The notes under the pieces were generated by a model. The model worked only from the letters and a program-made list of their open reading frames with translations. It did not search any database and was not told where the DNA came from. From Clostridiales bacterium (GTDB lineage Bacteria > Bacillota > Clostridia > Christensenellales > QALW01), in NCBI GenBank assembly GCA_015069575.1, contig SVIH01000011.1, positions 376 to 64,375 on the forward strand: a stretch of DNA of 64,000 nt, given 5' to 3'. The translations under genes and the position numbers were made by a program. The stretch's first letter is position 1; each line of letters begins with the position of its first letter. Positions 3,478 to 61,151 of this stretch are shown in pieces.

Positions 3478-3755
3478 TTAACCAAACCATTATAACTTGA
3501 ATCAGTTGTAAAATGTAAAATTTACGTTTTAATTGTGTCAAAGCCCTTGATAATATTTCCTATATTGTCTGCGGGCTTTTCCTTGTTAAAACAAAAATTT
3601 TATCATTTTTCAATCTGCGACCTTAAACTGCTCAATTTTGAGCAGATTTAGGTGCGAAGGACGCGTTAAGACAGGTCGCCTTAAAAGGACGCCAAACCGA
3701 AATATGCCTAAATTCAGCCGTTTAAGGCTGGTTCAAGCTATCATGGTTTGGTTAC
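3478..3755 (-). mobile_element. MITE-like palindromic element, copy A (full length, inverted relative to copy C)
   Basis: TTAA-CCAAACCATTATAACTTGAATCAG ... CTGGTTCAAGCTATCATGGTTTGG-TTAC. About a dozen substitutions and no indels versus copy C in my manual alignment. Lies between grpE and dnaK. Confidence 0.8.
3512..3541 (-). promoter_or_regulatory. promoter-like boxes inside element copy A, directed at dnaK
   Basis: Reverse strand reads TTGACA (3541-3536), an 18-nt spacer, then TACATT (3517-3512). A TATAAT also lies in the terminal repeat (3494-3489). Confidence 0.35.
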
Positions 3756-4280
3756 TTGAACCATTGAATAGCGAATTATTTTGTCACCCATTTTGTAGCC
3801 TTTTTCAAATACGGTGGCTACAACGCCTTTTTCCTGTCCTTCTTGCGCAGGAATTTGCATCATCGCGTTATGGCAGGTAGGGTCAAAAGGCTTATTTAAT
3901 GCTTCAATTTCCTGAACGCCTAAATCGCTTAAAGATTTAAGCATCTGTTTAAGTACGATTTCAAGGCCTTCCATTAAAGAACCTGTTGTACCGTTTTTGC
4001 GTTCAGTTTCCAACGCGCGTTCAAGGTTATCTAAAACAGGTAAAAAAGCTTTTACTGCTTCAACCTTACCGTCGCTTAATGCATCTGCCCTTAATGTAAC
4101 ATTTCTTTTTCGATAGTTATCAAAATCTGCTTGTATTCTTTGGGCAAGCGCAAGATATTCTTCTTCTTTAGAAATAGGCTGTTCTTCTTTAACTTCTTCA
4201 ACTGACTGATAATCGTCATTTGCGTTGGTTTCTTCAACTGTCTCTTTTATTTCTTCTTCTTTTTTCTTACTCATCGTCAT
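3741..4280 (-). CDS. grpE: nucleotide exchange factor GrpE
   Basis: GrpE C-terminal signature (GYKMGDKIIRYSMVQV) and operon position. The last codons ACC AAA CCA TGA lie inside element copy A. Confidence 0.95.
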   Translation of the reverse strand: MTMSKKKEEEIKETVEETNANDDYQSVEEVKEEQPISKEEEYLALAQRIQADFDNYRKRNVTLRADALSDGKVEAVKAFLPVLDNLERALETERKNGTTGSLMEGLEIVLKQMLKSLSDLGVQEIEALNKPFDPTCHNAMMQIPAQEGQEKGVVATVFEKGYKMGDKIIRYSMVQVTKP

Positions 4281-5301
4281 TCTCCTTTAAGCCCGCAGGC
4301 TCTGTAAATATATCAGAAAGTGTTTTGCCAACCTGATCTAAAACAGAAAGCACTTTATCATATTGCATTCGTGTAGGTCCTATAACACCAATTTTACCAA
4401 GGTCTTTGCCATGGGCAGAATAAGTTGCAGTAACAACACTGACATCGCCAAGGCCTGTTTCATGACCAATGCGAACGCTTATTCCGTTTTCGTCGTTATT
4501 AACAAGTTCGCCAATTTTTTGATTTTCTTCTAAAAGTTGCAAAAAACCGCGGGCTTTATTTACATCGGTAAACTCCTGATGGGAAAGCATTTTACTTGCC
4601 CCTTCAATAACAAGTTTCTCCTGTTTTTGTTTTAATCGTGCGCAAAGCACTGTACATATAGCATCAAAAATCTGTTTTTGGTCAGCGATTTCATTTTCTA
4701 CAATATATTGGGCGCCGGGATGAATTTCGTCAACACTTTTTCCTGCAAACATTCTGTTTAAAAGTTGACTCATACTGTTAAGTTCATCAACAGAAACACT
4801 TCTTGGTAATGTTATGGGCGTGTTCTGAATCATTCCTGTATCGGTTAAAAGCACAACCATTGCTGTCATAGAATTTACCGGCATAAGCTGTATGCTTGAA
4901 ACATTAACATTTTTTGTTTTAGGCGGTGTTACTATTGAAACGTATTGTGTAAGGTCACTTATAACCTTTGCGGCATCTGTAAGCACTTCACCTGTCTGAC
5001 CAATTCGTTTATCATAATAGGTTTTTATGTATTCTATTTCCGGTAAAGAAAGGGTCGAAAGTTTTAAAAGGTTATCAACATAAAATCTGTAAGCCTTTTC
5101 GCTTGGCACTCTGCCTGCAGAAGTGTGAGGTTGCTCAAGATAACCAAGATCTTCAAGATCGCTCATCTCGTTACGGATTGTTGCTGAAGAAAGAGCAAAG
5201 TTTTTTGAAATAGTTCTGGATCCAACAGGCATTGCGTTTGAAATATAATCTTCAATTATAGCCTGCAATATTTCCCGTTGCCGCTGACTTAATTCACCCA
5301 T
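4267..5301 (-). CDS. hrcA: heat-inducible transcription repressor HrcA
   Basis: N-terminal wHTH (LSQRQREILQAIIEDYI...PVGSRTISK), first gene of the dnaK operon, with CIRCE upstream. Confidence 0.95.
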   Translation of the reverse strand: MGELSQRQREILQAIIEDYISNAMPVGSRTISKNFALSSATIRNEMSDLEDLGYLEQPHTSAGRVPSEKAYRFYVDNLLKLSTLSLPEIEYIKTYYDKRIGQTGEVLTDAAKVISDLTQYVSIVTPPKTKNVNVSSIQLMPVNSMTAMVVLLTDTGMIQNTPITLPRSVSVDELNSMSQLLNRMFAGKSVDEIHPGAQYIVENEIADQKQIFDAICTVLCARLKQKQEKLVIEGASKMLSHQEFTDVNKARGFLQLLEENQKIGELVNNDENGISVRIGHETGLGDVSVVTATYSAHGKDLGKIGVIGPTRMQYDKVLSVLDQVGKTLSDIFTEPAGLKENDDE

Positions 5302-5330
5302 GTTTTACCCTCCCCTTTTTTTGACTTTTG

Positions 5331-5357
5331 TTAGCACTCGGGTTTGGTGAGTGCTAA
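5331..5357. promoter_or_regulatory. CIRCE operator (HrcA binding site)
   Basis: Exact TTAGCACTC-N9-GAGTGCTAA, 30 nt upstream of the hrcA start. Confidence 0.95.
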
Positions 5358-5562
5358 TTACGATTTTATTATATGCAACTTAAATTAATTTGTCAACTAG
5401 TTTGGTGCAATTTAATTTAATTGTTATCAAATTTTCACAAAATATACAAAAAACACTTATTTCAAGGCTAAAAAATAGCAAAACAAGAAAAATTTTAGGC
5501 AAATTAAAATAATTGAATGAAGGAAAAATAAAAGCGCAATAATATGAAAGGAGCAAAAAACC

Positions 5563-5784
5563 GTGAAACAAATTACGGTAAAAATTTCAAATAAAAATTT
5601 TGAGGCATTAAAAAAAGCATCAAAATTTTCTGATAAAGATAAGGTAGTTAATAAGGCGCTTAAACAATTTTTTGTAAAAAAGCATAAAATGAAAGTAAGA
5701 ACGCTTTTAAAAAGAGGCTACAAAACTTTTGCAAAACTAAATTTAAGGCTTTGCAGAATATTAGAAGAAGATGCCGATTTTTAA
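5563..5784 (+). CDS. mazE: MazE/EndoAI-type antitoxin
   Basis: GTG start with AGGAG upstream. Aligns by eye to Bacillus EndoAI (LLKRGYKTFAKLNLRL vs LMRRGYMEMAKINLNI). Immediately upstream of mazF. Confidence 0.75.
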   Translation: MKQITVKISNKNFEALKKASKFSDKDKVVNKALKQFFVKKHKMKVRTLLKRGYKTFAKLNLRLCRILEEDADF

Positions 5785-5817
5785 AAAGCGGTCTTGTTAT
5801 TGAAAGGGTGAAGCACA

Positions 5818-6165
5818 TTGATAAAAAGGGGCGAAATATATTACGCTGACCTTTCGCCCGTTGTGGGCAGTGAACAAGGCGGAATCCGCCCTGTTCTAAT
5901 ACTGCAAAACGATATAGGCAATAAATACAGCCCCACAATTATCGTTGCGGCAATAACATCAAAAACAGATAAAGCAAAACTGCCCACCCATATAGCCCTT
6001 CAGGGCGAAAGACATGGCTTGCCAAAAAATTCGGTAATACTTTTAGAACAGATACGCACCATCGATAAAAAGCGGCTTAAAGAAAAATTAGGCGGCCTTA
6101 ACAATATAACAATGAACAAAGTAGAAGACGGCTTGCGCGTAAGCCTTGGCTTTACGGAGTTTTAA
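5818..6165 (+). CDS. mazF: MazF/EndoA (PemK family) mRNA interferase toxin
   Basis: [31 protein letters not shown]...[10 protein letters not shown] is the conserved EndoA/MazF core. TTG start. Confidence 0.93.
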
Positions 6166-6200
6166 CAAAAAAGCCAACGGATAATCCGTTGGCTTTATTT
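6166..6200. terminator. bidirectional terminator (mazF / apt)
   Basis: Stem AGCCAACGG / CCGTTGGCT with an ATAAT loop, A-run before and T-run after, between convergent genes. Confidence 0.75.
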
Positions 6201-6723
6201 ATTTTCCATCATACTGAATAACTGATTCAACTTTATAATCCTTTAAAAGTTCGCGGCCGTTTAAGCCTTTTAACTCTAAAAGGAAAAGAATTTTTTCTAC
6301 CGTTCCGCCAAGTTCTTCAACAAGTTCGCAACAGGCTTTAACTGTGCCACCGGTTGCAATTAAATCGTCAATTAAAACAACTTTTTCTCCTTTTTTAATT
6401 GAATCTTTGTGCATTTCAATTTGCGCGGTGCCGTATTCAAGGGCGTATTCTTTTGTAACGGTTTCCCTTGGCAGTTTGCCTTTTTTACGAATTAAAACAA
6501 AGGGTTTGTTTAATAAGTACGCTAAGGGCGCGCCAAATATAAAACCGCGTGATTCTGCGCCGGCGATAACATCGAATTCAACATCTTTTAAAAGTTTTAA
6601 AAATTCATCAATGGCAAGTTTAAAGCCATCTGCATCCTGTAAAACGGTTGTTATATCTCTAAATAAAATTCCTTCTTCGGGAAAATCGGGAATAGTGGTT
6701 ACATAATCTTTAACGGATTTCAT
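6199..6723 (-). CDS. apt: adenine phosphoribosyltransferase
   Basis: PRTase motif VVLIDDLIATGGT. Start moved to the internal ATG (MKSVKDYV...) that has GGAGG upstream. The longer track ORF adds an implausible leader. Confidence 0.93.
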   Translation of the reverse strand: MKSVKDYVTTIPDFPEEGILFRDITTVLQDADGFKLAIDEFLKLLKDVEFDVIAGAESRGFIFGAPLAYLLNKPFVLIRKKGKLPRETVTKEYALEYGTAQIEMHKDSIKKGEKVVLIDDLIATGGTVKACCELVEELGGTVEKILFLLELKGLNGRELLKDYKVESVIQYDGK

Positions 6724-6789
6724 ATTTTTGCCTCCATAAATATAAATACATACTAAATATATCACAAATTTCAAGGATTTTCAATAGTA

Positions 6790-6817
6790 TTGACTAAATT
6801 TTTTTAGATGGTATAAT
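6790..6817 (+). promoter_or_regulatory. sigma-A type promoter reading through element copy B into cca
   Basis: TTGACT (6790-6795), 16-nt spacer, TATAAT (6812-6817). Confidence 0.55.
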
Positions 6818-6821
6818 TAGG

Positions 6822-7014
6822 TTAATCAAACCATTATAGTTTGAACCAGCCTTAAACTGCTGAATTCAGGCATATTTTGGTTTGTCGTCCTTTTAAGGCG
6901 TCCTGCCTTAATGCGTCCTTCGTACCTAAATCTGCTCAAAATTAAGCAGTTTAAGGTCGCAGATTGAAAAATTTTACATTTTACAACTGATTCAAGTTAC
7001 AATGGTTTGGTTAA
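6822..7014 (+). mobile_element. MITE-like element, copy B (short variant, about 85-bp internal module missing)
   Basis: TTAA-TCAAACCATTATAGTTTGAACCAG ... CTGATTCAAGTTACAATGGTTTGG-TTAA. Colinear with copy C except for one internal deletion. Confidence 0.8.
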
Positions 7015-7028
7015 GGCAGGTGAAATAA

Positions 7029-8186
7029 ATGCTTCCTAAAAATGCGGAATACATATTAAATAAGTTAAACGAAAACGGGTTTCAGGCATATCTTGTTGGC
7101 GGATGCGTCCGTGATAAACTGCTTAATAAAGTTCCTGAAGATTACGATATAACCACAAACGCTCTTCCGCAGAAAATTGCAGAAGTATTTAGTGAATTTC
7201 ACCTTAACTTAAAGGGGCTTAAACATGGCACTGTTGGTGTAATAATAAATGGTGAAATGATTGAAATAACCACCTACCGTATTGATGGGGATTATCTGGA
7301 TTCGCGCAGGCCCGAAAACGTAACTTTTACCCCAAATTTAAAGGAAGACCTTGCCCGTAGGGATTTTACCATAAACGCTATGGCGATGGATAAAAATGAA
7401 AATATCATTGATGTTTTTAACGGTAAAAGCGATTTAAAAAACAAAATTATCCGAACGGTAGGAGACCCTGAAAAAAGGTTTAACGAAGACGCTTTAAGGA
7501 TTATGAGGTGTTTGCGTTTTGCTTCTAAAGAGGGCTTTGTTATACAAGAAAACACCTTAAATTCTTTAAATCAATTAGCGCCCAATTTAAAGCATATTGC
7601 TTATGAACGTATTTATACCGAACTTAAAAAAATGCTTTCAGAGGCTAATGCACATAATATAATAAGGAAAACAAAGCCTGTTTTTGAAAACGTTTTTCCT
7701 ACGCTTAACACAGAAAAATGGGATATAATATGTAAACATATAAAGGAATGTGAATGTTCATGGCTTTTATGTTTGGCGGTGCTTTTAATAAATAGCGACA
7801 CAAAAAAAGAACTTGACCGCTTAAAAGTTGAAACCAAAACAAAGTGTTTAGTATTAAACTTAAAAGAATTGCTTAATAAAAAGATTTTAAACGATAAAGC
7901 GTTTTTGCAAAAAATGATGTGTGAACATTCAAAAGAACAAATCCTGTTTTTATGTTCATACTTAACCGTAATAACCAAAGAAGATTATAATAAAAACGCT
8001 ATTTTAGCATCAAAAGGAATAACAAGTGTAAACGAACTTGATATACAAGGGCAAACGCTGAAAAATCTTGGTTTTAAAAGTTATAAAATAAAGGAAGCAT
8101 TAAATGTTTTATTAAATGCGGTTATTGAAAACAAGGTTAAAAACCAAGAAACAGATTTAATTGAATACATAAAAAAACAGGCTTAA
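7029..8186 (+). CDS. cca: CCA-adding tRNA nucleotidyltransferase (PolyA polymerase family)
   Basis: N-terminal nucleotidyltransferase motif (AYLVGGCVRDKLLNK...DYDITT) and RDFTINA. Confidence 0.85.
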   Translation: MLPKNAEYILNKLNENGFQAYLVGGCVRDKLLNKVPEDYDITTNALPQKIAEVFSEFHLNLKGLKHGTVGVIINGEMIEITTYRIDGDYLDSRRPENVTFTPNLKEDLARRDFTINAMAMDKNENIIDVFNGKSDLKNKIIRTVGDPEKRFNEDALRIMRCLRFASKEGFVIQENTLNSLNQLAPNLKHIAYERIYTELKKMLSEANAHNIIRKTKPVFENVFPTLNTEKWDIICKHIKECECSWLLCLAVLLINSDTKKELDRLKVETKTKCLVLNLKELLNKKILNDKAFLQKMMCEHSKEQILFLCSYLTVITKEDYNKNAILASKGITSVNELDIQGQTLKNLGFKSYKIKEALNVLLNAVIENKVKNQETDLIEYIKKQA

Positions 8187-8205
8187 TTTAAGCCTGTTTT
8201 AATTT
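8172..8205. terminator. bidirectional terminator (cca, and the ancestral prfA end)
   Basis: Stem ACAGGCTT / AAGCCTGT flanked by A- and T-runs. Confidence 0.75.
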
Positions 8206-8240
8206 TTATTCTTCGTTATTTAATTCTCCTGTACTGCCTG

Positions 8241-8518
8241 CTAACCAAACCATTATAAATTGAACCAGCCTTAAACGGCTGAATTTAGGCATATTTCGGT
8301 TTGTCGTCCTTTTAAGGCGACCTGCCTTAACGCGTCCTTCGCACCTAAATCTCACCAAAATTGAGCAGTTTAAGGTCGCAGATTGAAAAATGATAAAATT
8401 TTTGTTTTAACAAGGAAAAGCCCGCAGACAATATAGGAAATATTATCAAGGGCTTTGACACAATTAAAACGCAAATTTTACATTTTACAACTGGTTCAAG
8501 CTATACTGGTTTGGTTAA
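8241..8518 (+). mobile_element. MITE-like element, copy C (full length, reference orientation)
   Basis: CTAA-CCAAACCATTATAAATTGAACCAG ... CTGGTTCAAGCTATACTGGTTTGG-TTAA. The right end overlaps the 3' end of prfA. Confidence 0.8.
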
Positions 8519-49705: not shown

Positions 49706-49782
49706 TGGTAGCGGCGAGTGGACTCGAACCACCGATCTGTCGGGTATGAACCGAATGCTCTAGCCAACTGAGCCACGCCGCC
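49706..49782 (-). tRNA. tRNA-Met (CAT), elongator type
   Basis: Reverse complement GGCGGCGTGGCTCAGTTGGCTAGAGCATTCGGTTCATACCCGACAGATCGGTGGTTCGAGTCCACTCGCCGCTACCA folds as a cloverleaf. Encoded CCA is present. Close to Bacillus elongator tRNA-Met and lacks the initiator GGG/CCC anticodon stem. Confidence 0.92.
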
Positions 49783-53037: not shown

Positions 53038-53706
53038 ATGGAAAAATATATTAATATTTTAAAAAAATGCCCGCTTTTTTTAGAAATAAGTGATGAAAAC
53101 TTGCTTGTAATGTTAAAGTGTTTAGGGGCAAAAGTGGTAAGTTTTGATAAAAAGTATACTGTGTTTACCAATGGCAAACCGTTAAAGCATATTGGAATTG
53201 TGCTTACAGGAAGTGTTCAGGTGATTCAGGTTGATTATTATGGCAACCGTAATATCGTTTCAAACAATGGTGTTGGCGAAATAATTGGCGAAGCTTTTGC
53301 CTGTGCCCAAGTTGAAAGTTTGCCTGTTTCAGTTATTGCGAACGAAAAAACGGATATTATGCTGATAAAAAGCGATCACATTCTTAAAACTTGTAAAAAT
53401 AACTGCGGATTTCACCAAAAACTTATATACAATCTTATGAAAGATATAGCGTTAAAAGCGGTGTTGTTTCATCAAAAAATTGAAATAATATCTAGGCGTA
53501 CTACAAGGGAAAAGCTAATGGCGTATCTTAATTTGCAAGCAAAAAAAGCGGGGAAAAGTGAATTTACAATCCCTTTTGATCGCCAAGAACTTGCCGATTA
53601 TTTAATTGTAGATAGATCAGGGCTTTCAAACGAAATTAGCAAACTTCGTGAAGAAGGTATAATTGAAAGCCACAAAAATTATTTTGAATTAACCAAACCA
53701 TTATAA
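53038..53706 (+). CDS. Crp/Fnr family transcriptional regulator
   Basis: cNMP-binding-like N-domain and C-terminal HTH (RQELADYLIVDRSGLSNEISKLREEGII). The last codons (TTA ACC AAA CCA TTA TAA) are element sequence. Confidence 0.9.
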   Translation: MEKYINILKKCPLFLEISDENLLVMLKCLGAKVVSFDKKYTVFTNGKPLKHIGIVLTGSVQVIQVDYYGNRNIVSNNGVGEIIGEAFACAQVESLPVSVIANEKTDIMLIKSDHILKTCKNNCGFHQKLIYNLMKDIALKAVLFHQKIEIISRRTTREKLMAYLNLQAKKAGKSEFTIPFDRQELADYLIVDRSGLSNEISKLREEGIIESHKNYFELTKPL

Positions 53707-53756
53707 CTTGAACCATCCTTAAACTGCTGAATTTAGGTATATTTTGGTTTGGTTAA
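53689..53756 (+). mobile_element. MITE-like element, copy D' (68-bp mini derivative)
   Basis: The left roughly 57 bp of the element are joined to the terminal GGTTTGGTTAA. It shares its right TTAA with copy D. Confidence 0.7.
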
Positions 53757-54030
53757 CCAAACCATTGCGACTTGAATCAGCCTTAAATGGCTGAATTTAG
53801 GCATATTTGTGTTTGTCGTCTTTATAAGGCGACCTGCCTTGTTTCATCCTCCGCACCCAAATCTGCTCAAAATTGAGCCGTTTTAGGTCACAGATTTTAA
53901 AATGATAAAATTTTTGTTTTAACAAGGAAAAGTCCGCAGGTAATATAGGTAATATTATCAAGGGCTTTGACACAGTAAAAACGCAAATTTTACATTTTAA
54001 AACTGATTCAAGTTACAATGCTTTGGTTAA
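53753..54030 (+). mobile_element. MITE-like element, copy D (full length, most diverged)
   Basis: TTAA-CCAAACCATTGCGACTTGAATCAG ... CTGATTCAAGTTACAATGCTTTGG-TTAA. Colinear with copy C including the internal module. Confidence 0.78.
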
Positions 54031-54881: not shown

Positions 54882-57800
54882 TTATTCAGCATCTCTTTTC
54901 TTTTTAACAACGGTTGTAATAACAAAGCCTGTTGTAAGGGAAATAAGAGCTAACATTAAAATACTGTTAAAGCTATCGCCGGTTGAAACGGGATCTGAAA
55001 GAGCAATGTTGTTAAATGTTATAGTTTCAACAGGGGCGCTTGCTTTTTTAAGTGTTGTTTGTGCACTTAATTTGCCAAGGTTGTTATCAGCAACAACTAT
55101 TGTAACAGTGTAAACTGTTTCGTCGTAAGCAGTTTTTACATCATCACCCTTAACTTCACTAACTGTAAAGGTGTAGGTGCCTTCTTCGGTAAAGATAAGT
55201 TCATTAAACTTAATAACGCCGTCCTTATCGTTTGTAAGGGTCATAACCGTTTTACCGCTTTCATCTTTAACAATAAAGGTGAATTCCTTATCTTTAAGGT
55301 CGCGGCCTTTAAGAACCTTTTTACCATCAGTTAAAACAACCTTTATGCCGTTAGGATCAATGGTATACAAATTACTGAAAGTAAGTTCATCGCTTTGTGA
55401 AACAACTATTGATGCTTCAAGTTTGCCTAAAGTAACATTATCGGTAACTTCAACTGTAACATAAAGTTCGCTTTCATCATAGGTAACACCGGGGATAGTG
55501 CCTTTTGTTTCGGTAACCTTAAACTTATAGGTACCTGCCTTCTTAAAGGTTATATCACCAAAGAATGCGTTATCCTTGTTTAAGTTTGTAAGCGTTACTG
55601 ATGTGTTGGTAAAGGCTATATCACCGTTTGCAATAGCAGTTAAGGTGTTGTTATCAGCGCCTGCAAGATTAAAGGTGAAATTATCAGTTTCTAACCAAGC
55701 GTTATTTTTGCGGCCTGTAAAGTCTTTTTCAACTTTAAGGTTTGCGCTGCCTGAAAGAACAACCTCTTCAGCCTTATAAGTGTTTTTAAATACTATTGCT
55801 TCAGCGCTTTTTGAATCCTTTGTGATCGTAACTGTGGCTTTAAGTTTAGCTTCTGCACTGTCATCTTTTACCTCAATTGTTACTTCGTAAACGCTTTGGT
55901 CATAATCAACACCGTTAATATTGCCTTTTGTTTCGGTAATCTTAAACTTATAGGTGCCAATCTTATTAAAGGTAACAGGAACGGTAGCTTTTGCGCCTTT
56001 TGTTGCAATAACTGTTGTTACAGTATCTTCGGAGTTTACATCAAGCTGAATTTCAACAATACCATCTTTAATAGCCTGTTTTGTTGCTTCGTCTGCTTGA
56101 ACCTTAAAGGTAAATTCGTCACTGTTAAGCCAATCTCTGCCTTCAAGGTCTTTACTGATTTCAATGTTAACAGGATCGGTTTTTTCTGCAGTATAGCCGT
56201 TTACAATTACTGTGTTGTTAAGTGTTGTAAGAATGGCAGTAAGGTTGCCGATACGGTCATCAACAACGCGATAAGTTAATAGGTGTTGTTCAGTACTATA
56301 AGTAATACCGGGGATTTTGTCAGCATCATCAGGAATAACTTCAGAAATAATGATCGTGTAAGTACCTGCTTTTGTAAAGGTAATGCCATCAAAGGTAATA
56401 TGTCCGCTTGCATCGTTTAATGCGTATGGATTTGCTGGTAAGGTGATGCCATCAGGTGTGTTAGGTGCAAGGCTTACCATAAACTTAAATTCGCCTGCCT
56501 CTAATCCGATAGCTCTGTCACCGTCAATAACCTTACGGCCAACAGGAATATCTACGGTAATGGGTGTAGGTTTGTAGGTGTTTGTAAACACGATTTCGTT
56601 TACAGGTTCGGGAGAAGAATTTTCATTTGCTTTATAAAGTTCTGTTGATTTAACTTTAAGATTGCCTTGGTTATCGTCTTCAATTTCTACATAGAAAAGA
56701 TATTGCGCAGTATCATATTCAGTATTTGGAACCATATTGTTTGATTCTGTAATATAGAATCGATATGTTCCTGCCATATCAAAGGTCATATTTTCAAGGA
56801 ATTTGATTGTACCGCTGTAAACACCGTCAGCATCAGCTTGAATGTCTTCGGTATGAGTAACGTAAGAACGCATAATCTCTGTTCCGTCAGGTTTAAAGCC
56901 TACAATCTCAAAGTAGAACTCGCCTGCTAAGAGAGTTTTACCCGTAAGCTTCTTTGTGCCTGTTAAACTTACAGGGGTATCTGTAAAGGTTGAGGTATAG
57001 GTGTTTACAAAATCTGCTGAATCTAAACCGTTACTATAAGTTTTTGAAGCAACTTCAAGCACACCGTTATTATCTTCAACAACGATAGTAATTGTGATTA
57101 CGCTTTCATCGTAAGTAACGCCCTTATAGGTGCCCTTTTTTTCAACAACCTTAAATTTATATGTACCAGGTTTTTTAAACCGAAGGTTACTAAAACTAAA
57201 GGAATATTTGTGGCCGTCCATAAGATTTTCAAGGGTTATCGGGCCGGGCACATCAATTGAATCAACAATAGCATCTAAAGTAATTTCATCAGCGCCTGTT
57301 AAGATGAATTCAAAACGTTCGCCCTGTAACGTATCTCTGCCATTAAAGATTTTTGTTCCGTTAATATCGGTTTTAACAGGATCAGGTGAATAGGTGTTAT
57401 TAAAGGTTGCAATATGTACATTGTTGGGATAGATAGCATTTACAATCAGTGTTGAACTGTTGGGATCAATGGAAACTTCAACTGCAATATCAAACTTGGT
57501 ATCATCATAGATCATACCGTTAAGCTTGTTATTAACTGCGCTGTGCGGAATCACTTCACTCATTTGATAGTAGAAGGTTACCTTGCTGTTAGCGCTTAAA
57601 GAAGTGAGGGTTGATTGTGTAAATTCAACAGGAAGGAATGCAATGTTATGACCTTCGTTTGTTGTGGTGCTGATTCCGTTAACTGCATCAGCAGGCATTG
57701 GAACCTTTGAAATATCATTAACAATGTTGCCATCATCAACCTTGTAACCAATTGCCTGAAGCTTAAAGTTAAACATACCTGAAACAAGAGGCTTTTTGCC

Positions 57801-60800
57801 TGAAAGATCGGTGTATTCCTTTAATGCAACGGGAACGCGTGTAACAGAAGAAACACTGTATTCATTAATAAATACGATATCGTCCTGTGCTTCCTGATCT
57901 GAATCCATTACGATTTCGCCATTAACGAAAGTAAAATTGGGGTTTGCATTATCATCTAAAAGTTGCTGAATATCCTGGGAAGCAATAATAAGCGAACCAT
58001 TACCGTTATCAATAACTTCAACAACTAACCTGTATAATGCCCTTGAATATGACATACCGGGTAAATATTCATTGTTTGCAGGTTCATCTTCATAAATGGT
58101 GTAACGGTAAGTGCCGGGGGCAGTAAAGGTAATGGAGCCAAAGTCAAATTCGGCAGCATTAAAACCATCAACAGTTGTGTTAGGCTGTGTAACGGTTATG
58201 CCGTTTACAGCATCATAGCCTGCAGGAAGGGGTGCGTTGTTATAGGGTGAAAGGAAGAATGTAAATGAATCAGTTACACCGTCTGAGTTATCAGTATCCC
58301 AAGTGCGACCAACAAGAACCTTTGTTGCTTTAAGGCTTGTGCCTGATGGGAATGTAACAGGGGTTACGCTATAAGTGTTAAGGAAAACGGCTTCACTTGT
58401 TTCGTTTGCCTGAATTCTGCCTGTAGTGCCCTGGCTTACTGTTGTAAAGCCTGCAAGTGCTGTTTCAGTTACCTCGTATTCGGTTTCAGGGGGAAGTGAT
58501 AAGATGGTAGCACTTTGACCGTCTTTAAGTGTAAAGGTGTTGTTATTTTGTGAAAGTGTACCGGTTCTTACCTGGTTGCCGCTTGCATCTGTAACAATGT
58601 AGTTAAGTACAAGTGAACTTACCTGATCACCGTTAAGGTTAAGTGTAAAGGTGAAATCCTTATCGGGTGCGGTAACACCTTCACTTGTTTCAACTTTCTT
58701 TCTAACTTTAAGGTTTCCGCCACCAAGCATTTGAATAACACCGTTGTTACCAAGGTAAACCTTAAAACTGCCTTCATATGGATCGTTGCTTCCGTCAGCG
58801 TGAACGAATGTTGCGCCGTAGAAGTCCTCAGCAGTGTTTGTAGCATTTAAGGTTTTTGTGCCTTCAAAACGTAAAATACGGTTTAAGCGGGGTGAGCCTG
58901 GCTTACGGTAAAGATAACCGCCAATAGTAACAAAAGCATCGCTTTCAGAACCAAAGCTGTTTGCAAGGTTTAAAAGCTGTCTGCCTGTACGGGCAATAGC
59001 AGCTGTTTCAACGCTTGTGCCGTGGTAGTAGGTATCGTTATAGTAATAAGTTGTATTTTCGTCAATGCCTTCGGAAGCAGGTAATTGCTGGGTAAGATCC
59101 GCATCCTTATAAATAGGCATATTTTCTAAAATGTAATAGAAGGGGTTGGTGTGTGAAGGCTCAAACTCAACAAATGCGTTACCTGCTTTGTTGCCGTTAA
59201 CTTCATTTTCACCTGTATAGAGGTTTGAATAGAAGTTGATAGTGCCATCAGCATTTATGTTGTTTTTAACATAATCTGCCGAAACTTTTGTAAGGTCAAC
59301 ATAAGCTTCGCCGCGATCAACCTTTTTAAGTCCGTCTTTCATAGCAACGGAATAAATAACTCTTGCAGGGTATGCACCGTTATTTGTGTGGGTTTTAACT
59401 GAACCATCAGCATTTAATGTAACGGTATTAACGCGCAGGGGAATAACACCTGCAGGAATCTTAACTGTAAGGGTTTCGTTATCGTTTGCATCCTTTGTAA
59501 CGGTGATAACGATGTTTTCAATATCCTGATGTCCGTAAACAGCACTTTCAACAGTACCTTCGAAAATATAGGTAGTGGTGTTGCCATTTTTAGTGCTTGT
59601 TTTTTGTGTAAATGTTGCACCTGCATAAATGATAGCCTTAATGTCTTTAACTACCATATATTCGCCAATGGGGTCTGTATATGTAATAAAGCCGGTATTC
59701 ATAAAGTCATCAGTACGAAGTTCAGTGGGAACTTCAGGCGCGCTGATGGTAATGCTTGAAACGATAGAATCAAAAACGCTTGCTACTGATGAGGCATTAT
59801 CTGCAGGATAATATCCGTTAACAAGATTTTTAAGGGCATCTTTATAGGTTGTAGTATAAATATCCTGTAAGGGAGATCTTGGATGCCTTACCGTATAATT
59901 TTCATTACTGCCTGTTTGTACGGTGATGGTGCTGTTGCTACCGGGCGTCTGGTTAGTGTAGCGGGTCCAGGCGTTTCTTATATTTTCAGCCATATCGTTA
60001 TCACTGTTCCAGTTGCCACCGGGGTTAAGGGTCATATAAGCAAGATCCTGCTCACCGGTATATGATTGATAAAACCAGGAATTTTCGTAGTTATCAAGAT
60101 CAGTAATACCCATACCAACGGTGTAAAGTGTAGCTTGCATATTTGTGCCTGTTACACCGTAATTTTCATTTATGGCATTTTTCATATAAGCACCGGTCAT
60201 TAAAGCTTTAAAGCCGTTGCCATAGTATGAACTGCTACCGGGGCCGTCATTATCATTATTTAAAGGTTCCCACCAGTTGCTTGTATTGTAATTTGTATCA
60301 CCTGAAGAATATGTAGGTGCACCATCAGAAAGTAAAATTACAGAGGGTACACGCTTAACACTTGAACCGTTGATGTCAGCAGTGGTATCTTGGGCAGAAG
60401 CGAGAATGTTCATACCTTCATAAAGACCTGCCTGTATGTTTGTTCCGCCTGAAACATCGATTTCCCTGTTGATATTACCTTCTTCCTGACCTGTTGCGCG
60501 CACGGTAAGTTCAACATTACCGCCTGCGTACTGAGTGTTAAGGGTAAGATAATCATAAGTTGTGTTACCACTGGTGTGCTTTACATAATGATCCAAAGGC
60601 AACAAAGTGGTTGCAGTATCAGAGAATACAACAACTGCAACGCGGGTATAATCGTTCATAGACATCAATTTATCAATAGATGTATTTACCGCAGTTACCG
60701 TATTTGCAATACGGCTTAAACCGTTATCCATTCTACTGTCGCTATTGCTCATTGAACCTGAAATATCAATAATCAATACAACATCAACAGGGGCGTGGGT

Positions 60801-61151
60801 TTCGCCTGAAACTGCTTTTGAAGTACCTAATGCAGAATATGCGATTAAAAAGTCTTCATCATCATTTTTATTGATGGTTGAATTTCCGCCACCAAATGTT
60901 ACAAAAGTAACATCGTTAGAATAAACTGATTTATCTGTCCAAAGTCTTCCTGAATACTCAGTTGATGCGTTATCGCCTAAGGATTCAGTATGTTTTGCGG
61001 ATGTATCAAGATCCACTATTGCGTTTACTGTGCCTGCAACGGCTGTAATTGCCTTTACAGTTGAAAACATTCCTGTTTCAACAACACCAAAAATCATAAC
61101 CAAAGCTAAAAGTGTTGCAACAACAGATTTAAGCAAACTCTTTCTTGTCAT
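54882..61151 (-). CDS. giant cell-surface adhesin: signal peptide, vWA domain, Cna-B/SpaA-type domain, 8 pilin-isopeptide-type repeats, LPXTG-like anchor
   Basis: 2089 aa. MIDAS motif DISGSMS. Eight repeats of F..(A/K)GTY.F.(V/I).E.KG...GV.YD.S.Y.V.V.V.D. C-terminal PVSTG, then a hydrophobic helix, then KKKRDAE. Confidence 0.9.
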   Translation of the reverse strand: MTRKSLLKSVVATLLALVMIFGVVETGMFSTVKAITAVAGTVNAIVDLDTSAKHTESLGDNASTEYSGRLWTDKSVYSNDVTFVTFGGGNSTINKNDDEDFLIAYSALGTSKAVSGETHAPVDVVLIIDISGSMSNSDSRMDNGLSRIANTVTAVNTSIDKLMSMNDYTRVAVVVFSDTATTLLPLDHYVKHTSGNTTYDYLTLNTQYAGGNVELTVRATGQEEGNINREIDVSGGTNIQAGLYEGMNILASAQDTTADINGSSVKRVPSVILLSDGAPTYSSGDTNYNTSNWWEPLNNDNDGPGSSSYYGNGFKALMTGAYMKNAINENYGVTGTNMQATLYTVGMGITDLDNYENSWFYQSYTGEQDLAYMTLNPGGNWNSDNDMAENIRNAWTRYTNQTPGSNSTITVQTGSNENYTVRHPRSPLQDIYTTTYKDALKNLVNGYYPADNASSVASVFDSIVSSITISAPEVPTELRTDDFMNTGFITYTDPIGEYMVVKDIKAIIYAGATFTQKTSTKNGNTTTYIFEGTVESAVYGHQDIENIVITVTKDANDNETLTVKIPAGVIPLRVNTVTLNADGSVKTHTNNGAYPARVIYSVAMKDGLKKVDRGEAYVDLTKVSADYVKNNINADGTINFYSNLYTGENEVNGNKAGNAFVEFEPSHTNPFYYILENMPIYKDADLTQQLPASEGIDENTTYYYNDTYYHGTSVETAAIARTGRQLLNLANSFGSESDAFVTIGGYLYRKPGSPRLNRILRFEGTKTLNATNTAEDFYGATFVHADGSNDPYEGSFKVYLGNNGVIQMLGGGNLKVRKKVETSEGVTAPDKDFTFTLNLNGDQVSSLVLNYIVTDASGNQVRTGTLSQNNNTFTLKDGQSATILSLPPETEYEVTETALAGFTTVSQGTTGRIQANETSEAVFLNTYSVTPVTFPSGTSLKATKVLVGRTWDTDNSDGVTDSFTFFLSPYNNAPLPAGYDAVNGITVTQPNTTVDGFNAAEFDFGSITFTAPGTYRYTIYEDEPANNEYLPGMSYSRALYRLVVEVIDNGNGSLIIASQDIQQLLDDNANPNFTFVNGEIVMDSDQEAQDDIVFINEYSVSSVTRVPVALKEYTDLSGKKPLVSGMFNFKLQAIGYKVDDGNIVNDISKVPMPADAVNGISTTTNEGHNIAFLPVEFTQSTLTSLSANSKVTFYYQMSEVIPHSAVNNKLNGMIYDDTKFDIAVEVSIDPNSSTLIVNAIYPNNVHIATFNNTYSPDPVKTDINGTKIFNGRDTLQGERFEFILTGADEITLDAIVDSIDVPGPITLENLMDGHKYSFSFSNLRFKKPGTYKFKVVEKKGTYKGVTYDESVITITIVVEDNNGVLEVASKTYSNGLDSADFVNTYTSTFTDTPVSLTGTKKLTGKTLLAGEFYFEIVGFKPDGTEIMRSYVTHTEDIQADADGVYSGTIKFLENMTFDMAGTYRFYITESNNMVPNTEYDTAQYLFYVEIEDDNQGNLKVKSTELYKANENSSPEPVNEIVFTNTYKPTPITVDIPVGRKVIDGDRAIGLEAGEFKFMVSLAPNTPDGITLPANPYALNDASGHITFDGITFTKAGTYTIIISEVIPDDADKIPGITYSTEQHLLTYRVVDDRIGNLTAILTTLNNTVIVNGYTAEKTDPVNIEISKDLEGRDWLNSDEFTFKVQADEATKQAIKDGIVEIQLDVNSEDTVTTVIATKGAKATVPVTFNKIGTYKFKITETKGNINGVDYDQSVYEVTIEVKDDSAEAKLKATVTITKDSKSAEAIVFKNTYKAEEVVLSGSANLKVEKDFTGRKNNAWLETDNFTFNLAGADNNTLTAIANGDIAFTNTSVTLTNLNKDNAFFGDITFKKAGTYKFKVTETKGTIPGVTYDESELYVTVEVTDNVTLGKLEASIVVSQSDELTFSNLYTIDPNGIKVVLTDGKKVLKGRDLKDKEFTFIVKDESGKTVMTLTNDKDGVIKFNELIFTEEGTYTFTVSEVKGDDVKTAYDETVYTVTIVVADNNLGKLSAQTTLKKASAPVETITFNNIALSDPVSTGDSFNSILMLALISLTTGFVITTVVKKKRDAE

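Follow-up and report, generated by a model that had tools for sequence, protein, structure and literature searches.

A TA-duplicating family of miniature inverted-repeat elements with a branched predicted fold in an uncultured gut Clostridia clade

We examined a 64,000-nt stretch of a Clostridiales bacterium genome (assembly GCA_015069575.1, contig SVIH01000011.1, positions 376 to 64,375), referred to here as the window. Its G+C content is 36%, and it is identical to the JGI metagenome contig Ga0224413_10005902, which was found via its DnaK and comes from the same strain. One non-coding repeated element occupies four insertion sites in the window in the form of five pieces, the copies A, B and C and a tandem D'+D (Table 1), all found where a first-pass annotation made from the sequence letters had placed them. 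Among the neighbouring genes, Pfam identifies those for HrcA, GrpE, DnaK, a phosphoribosyltransferase, the CCA-adding enzyme, RF1 and PrmC. The D'/D tandem is flanked by the genes of a Crp/Fnr-like regulator and a ZIP transporter, at their converging, overlapping 3' ends.

The element proper is 272 bp long (5'-ACCAAACC…GGTTTGGT-3'). The length of 278 bp given initially holds as a count that includes the flanks, namely TA plus one more base on each side. Its ends are imperfect terminal inverted repeats (TIRs) of ~25 bp (5'-ACCAAACCATTRTARCTTGAAYCAG…), in agreement with the first estimate of roughly 24-27 bp, and two more long inverted repeats make up its interior. With a degenerate 24-nt pattern for the TIR, nine termini were recognised in the window, against 0.06 expected from dinucleotide shuffles, none of which reached nine. 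In a repeat search of the window, the inverted copy A is 96% complementary to C over 277 nt and 86% to D; the same search also picks up B and D' as partial matches. A and C share 95.6% identity over 274 alignment columns, with 12 substitutions and no indels, as counted approximately in the first-pass annotation, and D is the more diverged copy, also as described there. No further copy was found in the window with an nhmmer profile built from 12 copies, which recovered every known copy and fragment.

Internal deletions yield shorter derivatives. In B, 86 nt of the second hairpin (alignment columns 151-236) are missing, with a junction at an AAAT microhomology, and in D' the left 60 nt, with the internal GGTTTG, are fused to the terminal GGTTTGGT. 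Deletion at microhomology, and this particular join in D', had both been proposed from the sequence. A mini copy of 80 bp, composed of two TIRs and ~30 nt, is present in another metagenome-assembled genome (MAG), JAZSMS. The copies have no conserved reading frame in common, as claimed before: the longest stop-free stretch changes frame and strand from copy to copy.

Table 1. Positions of the element copies and associated features in the window
Feature	Positions	Strand	Description
Copy A	3481-3752	minus	Full length, 272 bp; TA at 3479-3480 and 3753-3754; between grpE and dnaK, in the hrcA-grpE-dnaK-dnaJ gene run
Copy B	6825-7011	plus	Internal-deletion derivative, 187 bp; TA at 6823-6824 and 7012-7013
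Copy C	8244-8515	plus	Full length; TA at 8242-8243 and 8516-8517; within the 3' end of prfA (RF1, minus strand)
Copy D'	53692-53753	plus	62-bp remnant: left TIR, ~35 nt and terminal GGTTTGGT; TA at 53690-53691
Copy D	53756-54027	plus	Full length, diverged subfamily; TA at 54028-54029; 86-87% identical to A and C
Promoter-like site of cca	6790-6817	plus	Host site, TTGACT-16-TATAAT with TG; 5 nt upstream of the copy B TA
Promoter-like site within the element	8455-8484	plus	TTGACA-18-TACATT in copy C; faces out via the right end
Orphaned end of prfA	8206-8241	minus	Last 11 codons and stop (AGSTGELNNEE*), severed by copy C

Comparison of filled and empty sites shows that the element inserts at a TA dinucleotide and duplicates it. 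The empty site A reads CAGG-TA-ACCATTTAA (starting with ACCATT) and the filled site CAAG-TA-[ACC…GGT]-TA-ACCATTTAA. Similarly, the empty site C reads GATTT-TA-GCAGG (GATTTTAGCAGG), with no TTAA, and the filled one GATTT-TA-[…]-TA-GCAGG. Where the related loci L042, L043 and L044 have a single TA in their empty sites, copies A and C are bracketed by two; of the 12 insertions, 11 are flanked by TA at both ends. The first-pass annotation had proposed a TTAA (YTAR-like) duplication, which these empty sites contradict. The base just inside the TA covaries with its partner (alignment columns 2/275, A·T in eight copies and G·C in three), so the inner A/T of the 'TTAA' belongs to the inverted repeat and is no part of the duplication. 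Outside the TA, the flanking base varies (G, T, C or A on the left; A, C or G on the right). It is nevertheless T in 6/12 left flanks and A in 9/12 right flanks, and this mild T-TA-A preference explains why TTAA was seen. The mini copy at L035 ends in TA-AT…AT-TA. As for the TTAA said to be shared by D' and D, the two copies do abut on one common TA (53754-53755).

All four window sites are empty in syntenic relatives; absence of empty sites is what the first-pass annotation had named as an argument against mobility. For sites A, B and C, the relatives are L042 (MAG JAZSTX), L043 and L044 (JAZQII), with 87%, 85.5% and 78.5% DNA identity to the window, respectively. None of them carries A, B or C, and the alignment breakpoints coincide with the element ends. 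The grpE-dnaK spacing at site A is 36 nt in the three relatives compared to 307 nt in the window, the cca-phosphoribosyltransferase intergenic region at site B is element-free in L042 and L043, and site D is empty in the JAZSPY locus L051, where crp and the ZIP gene overlap by 9 nt. The element is therefore mobile: its insertions are present or absent between close species, and it has moved within a genus-level clade. Together with copies at other loci in other species, this bears out the mobile family resembling miniature inverted-repeat transposable elements (MITEs) that had been suspected.

Insertion has altered the ends of host proteins. From both ends of the element, a stop is encountered within seven codons in all three frames (*, LTKP(L/V)*, NQT(I/S)I(N/A)*), which explains the common …TKP(L/V) tails of GrpE (…VTKP*), RF1 (…LTKPV*) and Crp (…LTKPL*). 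These tails had been read correctly in the first place; the tripeptide they have in common is a by-product of the stops in every frame near both ends and not a specific feature. Other MAGs provide further element-derived tails, …AKPL* and …NQTIVT*, as predicted by the end frames. In RF1, 11 residues were lost and TKPV gained, giving a window protein of 347 amino acids (aa). Removal of copy C in silico, with one TA kept, restores …ALIL-AGSTGELNNEE* and a predicted length of 354 aa; the closest homologues (P0001 and P0002, 96-97% identical) are 354 aa long and end exactly in …ALILAGSTGELNNEE, as the excision predicts. GrpE has its terminal …TI replaced by …TKP, and Crp gains KPL, its TKPL* tail coming from D'. 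Most Crp homologues measure 219 aa, again matching the in-silico excision. On the other side of the tandem, the ZIP transporter gene (minus strand) takes its stop codon from the last T of D and the following TA (54028-54029). Because of the stops in all frames near its ends, insertion of the element in the final codons of a gene costs that gene no more than the exchange of a short tail. An exact-protein look-up of GrpE with the element-encoded tail gave no match.

The predicted fold of copy C is very stable on both strands, with -94 kcal/mol for the plus and -98 kcal/mol for the minus strand (z ~ -9 in both cases). It is a three-way junction formed by the TIR stem and two internal hairpins. 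The interior is thus self-complementary as first noticed, and the predicted structure is branched and not the long rod that had been imagined. Paired cells amount to 97.7% across the 12 copies and to 97.6% in the TIR helix. Compensatory changes were observed on both sides of seven pairs, compared to 0-2 in slid controls, and the covariation score was 0.088 versus 0.060 in shuffles (0/500 shuffles reached 0.088). The strands differ in fold energy by 3.9 kcal/mol on average, with inconsistent sign, which gives no evidence for a strand-specific RNA. Since neither strand is consistently more stable while the pairs are compensated, the constraint acts on palindromy as such. Such a constraint fits a requirement at the DNA level, or an RNA hairpin that can form from either strand, and does not fit an RNA gene confined to one strand.

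We scanned 185,579 species representatives with the TIR pattern, and 37 loci were returned. About 24 of them were discarded as single-TIR chance matches in unrelated phyla, without further similarity. The element carriers among the 37 loci were limited to four 'Clostridia bacterium' MAGs (JAZSMS, JAZRTX, JAZSPY and CAAGID/HGM11321), with ~11 further loci, in flanks without a match to the window. A Crp 88% identical and a syntenic locus mark JAZSPY as a congener of the window organism. Related copies in the other MAG species are 85–96% identical and fall into two subfamilies, each present in more than one species: copies of the A/C type are 93-96% identical across species and those of the D type 89-93% identical to D. 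Inside one genome, copies differ by 4-14%. These copy numbers are lower bounds, as several MAG contigs end inside the element (L034, L037, L021 and L013); L034 and L037 (JAZSMS contigs 109 and 156) are overlapping contig ends (~157 nt) of one insertion, not two. At one further locus, L025 1-300 (JAZSMS010000143.1), the right TIR is followed by CCATGG instead of TA, and the TIR with the next ~80 nt occurs twice, 181 nt apart, which is either an assembly artefact at the repeat or a tandem duplication. In JAZRTX, an RNase P RNA gene (RF00010, 270 bits) was found at L028 1173-1502 (-), 77 nt upstream of a copy of the element and on the same strand.

Searches of other collections gave no additional carrier. 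A TAA-anchored TIR pattern yielded two chance matches only in a JGI metagenome set, which evidently does not include the JGI contig of the window and therefore says little on rarity. There was no match to the TIR pattern in IMG/VR, and none to copy C by blastn in PLSDB and INPHARED. In agreement with the first-pass annotation, no copy matched Rfam 15 at the gathering threshold; the best permissive E-value was >= 0.36, far below that threshold. The sole Rfam match in the window at the gathering threshold is a tRNA gene at 49709-49782 (-). A described counterpart of the element was not found in the collections and papers searched, the latter giving only general MITE reviews.

One filled site is common to two species. 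In L008 (JAZSPY) and L033 (JAZRTX), the element is present at the same position of the intergenic region between S41 peptidase and TM1266-like genes, between a leader terminator and the ribosome-binding site of the TM1266-like gene. The two copies differ at 2/274 positions (99.3% identity) and have copy-specific variants in common, while their flanks are 81-87% identical. An assembly-consensus artefact was considered for this identity and rejected, given these common variants and the other JAZRTX copies, which are only 94-95% identical to the pair. L050 and L046, both closer to L033 than L008 is (89-94% identity), are empty at the site, as is L047, which comes from the metagenome of the window itself. 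From ~25 nt outwards on each side of the element, the sequence of L033 agrees with that of L050 and not with that of L008. Short-tract lateral transfer, or a source copy that inserted more than once into this TA, could possibly account for this allele, and both would fit a recently active element crossing species. A third possibility is that the insertion is old, was precisely lost several times and has been conserved to an extreme degree.

The TM1266-like small gene is itself preceded by a conserved leader of ~150 nt that ends in a terminator hairpin and a T-run (L008 1160-1310, L046 4180-4335 and L047 4175-4335). Compared to Rfam, this leader, which may be an undescribed attenuator or riboswitch, gave no credible match (best E about 0.5).

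As judged from gene layout, every copy plausibly lies in a transcribed position. Copy B separates the strong promoter-like site of cca from the ribosome-binding site of that gene and lies 15 nt before its ATG (7029); since it directly follows the promoter-like site, it would be transcribed as a 5' leader. The cca promoter-like sequence is also present in the empty-site relatives L042 and L043. The element contains a promoter-like site of its own, which has 10/12 consensus matches in a consensus scan and whose first hexamer is TTGACA or TTGACG in 11/11 full-length copies. Its equivalent in copy A (3541-3512, minus strand) points at dnaK. At 4-5 loci (A, B, L008/L033 and L028) a gene start adjoins the right end, and at 2-3 loci (L015 and L016) it adjoins the left end. 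An orientation bias relative to neighbouring genes was judged unconvincing on this count, as gene starts adjoin both ends, so the outward promoter stays hypothetical.

Several other features were recorded around the copies. The prfA-cca gap is a variable spot: it has no gene in the window (8187-8500), a TMEM164-like gene in L044 (11069-11922), HAD_SAK_2, YAcAr and HTH genes in L043 (2849-4071), and these plus ~2.3 kb more in L042 (11066-14704). A PemK-family toxin gene and a 73-aa partner are located between the phosphoribosyltransferase gene and hrcA (window ~5380-6165; L001 3269-3871) and are kept in relatives. Just past dnaJ and a 179-aa gene, beyond the left edge of the window, a contig of the same strain (Ga0187908_10066241; L002 3968-5542) carries a large serine recombinase gene with Resolvase and Recombinase domains. 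Direct repeats of 137 nt (61-72% identical) at 55414-57182 lie inside the gene of a 2089-aa surface protein (54882-61151), for which other samples give the Pfam domains VWA, DUF7601 and FctA; they are internal domain repeats, unrelated to the element.

TIRs, TA duplication, presence or absence between relatives, deletion derivatives and lack of coding capacity are the defining features of a MITE, and the element has all of them. We consider it, with a probability of about 80%, to be a family of non-autonomous DNA transposons moved by an enzyme of the IS630/Tc1-mariner type. Several points weigh against this view. No autonomous element with these TIRs was found: the TIR pattern picked up only MITE-sized copies among the 185,579 species representatives, and no partner was found in the JGI metagenome set, IMG/VR, PLSDB or INPHARED either. 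MAG assemblies, on the other hand, break at repeats and tend to lose insertion sequence (IS) copies, so this absence says little. What points to the transposase family is the 2-bp TA duplication alone, and some IS5-family subgroups also make 2-4-bp duplications around TA. One copy, at L028, has CA in place of TA on one side. Finally, the L008/L033 allele is far more conserved than its flanks, which simple neutral decay of an old insertion does not explain.

The same gaps leave some room for a MITE moved by a transposase outside IS630/Tc1-mariner, either from one of these IS5-family subgroups or an undescribed enzyme. No cognate IS was found in any collection searched, and the family was assigned from the length and sequence of the duplication. 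We nevertheless think this unlikely, since TIRs together with a TA duplication of exactly 2 bp are the hallmark of IS630/Tc1-mariner and of MITEs assigned to that group, such as RUP (PMC2229807), and nothing here points to another family. Duplication of a 4-bp TTAA target, as by piggyBac-like or some IS5-group elements, could be suggested by the TTAA or NTAA at both ends of most copies and the one TTAA common to D' and D. With an empty C devoid of TTAA, an empty A reading CAGG-TA-ACC, any of the four bases on the left outside and an inner base that follows its TIR partner, and with the ends of the L035 mini copy, it has hardly anything left to support it. Even less credible is a palindrome-associated element of the IS200/IS605 type, moved as single-stranded DNA beside a TTAC/TTAA-like tetranucleotide, without TIRs or duplication. 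TTAC and TTAA at some ends and the extensive hairpin potential would suit such an element, but the ends are true inverted repeats over ~25 bp, the TA on both sides is single in empty sites and hence duplicated, and the symmetrical ends occur in both orientations.

A different reading takes the element primarily as a conserved structured RNA, a gene or a cis-regulatory module of ancient spread kept by selection. It would be favoured by the very stable fold with its compensatory changes, by the placement of every copy where co-transcription would occur, and by the orthologous L008/L033 copy, 99.3% identical against 82-87% in the flanks. However, close relatives have no insertion at any of the four window sites or at the L008/L033 site, and the L033 backbone matches the empty L050 to within ~25 nt of the element, pointing to recent arrival. 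Copies face either way with respect to the neighbouring genes and occur in unrelated contexts, deletion derivatives persist, divergence between copies of one genome amounts to 4-14%, neither strand is consistently favoured in fold energy, and Rfam gives no match. We hold a structured RNA of this kind to be very unlikely. Somewhat less so, and still doubtful, is a horizontally spreading, structure-constrained cassette reused by hosts as a regulatory module. Room for it is left by the junction fold kept through compensatory changes, the all-frame stops, the outward promoter-like site, the lack of a cognate transposase and the L008/L033 allele; it would involve cross-species transfer of filled alleles, or an enzyme not yet linked to TA-duplicating MITEs. 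Such reuse, if true, would uncouple dnaK from its HrcA-controlled promoter and, in the other case, place the element between a leader terminator and its gene.

The MITE family described here resembles several known repeats. ERIC/IRU elements are 127-bp enterobacterial imperfect palindromes of transcribed intergenic regions, some overlapping gene ends, with cross-species conservation above expectation. They differ from the present element in host range, size and sequence, and the case for their mobility is mostly indirect, whereas the present element is directly documented by empty and filled sites. Stowaway-type MITEs of the Tc1/mariner superfamily in eukaryotes likewise duplicate a TA, have TIRs and a foldback structure, and lack coding capacity; their sequence is unrelated, and the analogy is one of mechanism only. 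Correia elements measure ~105-155 bp, occur in Proteobacteria and have other TIR sequences. The Correia/NEMIS elements of Neisseria are nonetheless close in organisation: they are TA-flanked MITEs with ~26-bp TIRs, often co-transcribed, with promoter-like sequences, mRNA hairpins cleavable by RNase III and reading frames fused to host genes (PMC2229807). The likeness extends to TA flanks, TIRs, hairpins, promoter-like sequence and fused frames, but for Correia the IHF site, cleavage by RNase III and promoter activity are backed by experiments, while the present element is known from sequence alone. RUP (repeat unit of pneumococcus), a 107-bp MITE of Streptococcus pneumoniae assigned to IS630-Spn1 on TA insertion and TIR similarity, is likewise a non-coding, multicopy Firmicutes element with TIRs and TA insertion, thought to be moved in trans (PMC2229807). 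It is set apart by its description, namely its 107 bp and a known candidate parent IS with matching TIRs, compared to 272 bp, two extra internal hairpins and no parent found here. Correia/NEMIS, RUP and ERIC all differ from the element, by their descriptions, in host range and length.

Taken together, these results support well a new MITE family in an uncultured gut Clostridia clade, the kind of element being already well known and no new kind of system being revealed. The element is not TTAA-duplicating, not of the IS200/IS605 type and not an Rfam family; as no partner IS was found, it is not filed under any named family. In the mechanism we propose, on the basis of the TA duplication, a DDE transposase of the IS630/Tc1-mariner type, acting in trans, would recognise the terminal repeats and move the element; the gene of this enzyme would lie elsewhere or be no longer in these genomes. 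When co-transcribed, either strand would fold into a very stable branched hairpin that could affect mRNA processing or stability, and the outward promoter-like site could drive the gene beside the right end. These possible effects on expression are suggested by analogy with Correia elements (PMC2229807).

In practical terms, the repeat breaks MAG assemblies and alters the called ends of housekeeping genes (RF1, GrpE, the Crp/Fnr regulator and others), and its recognition prevents mis-annotated C-termini and spurious small open reading frames. The points of note are the missing transposase, the cross-species allele and the insertions in the grpE-dnaK operon and the coding end of prfA. A large hairpin inside the grpE-dnaK operon, and another inside a 5' leader, offer testable cases. 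The family attests to recent transposon activity and probable cross-species exchange in this clade of uncultured gut Clostridia, and shows how a MITE with stops in all frames can be tolerated in the last codons of essential genes.

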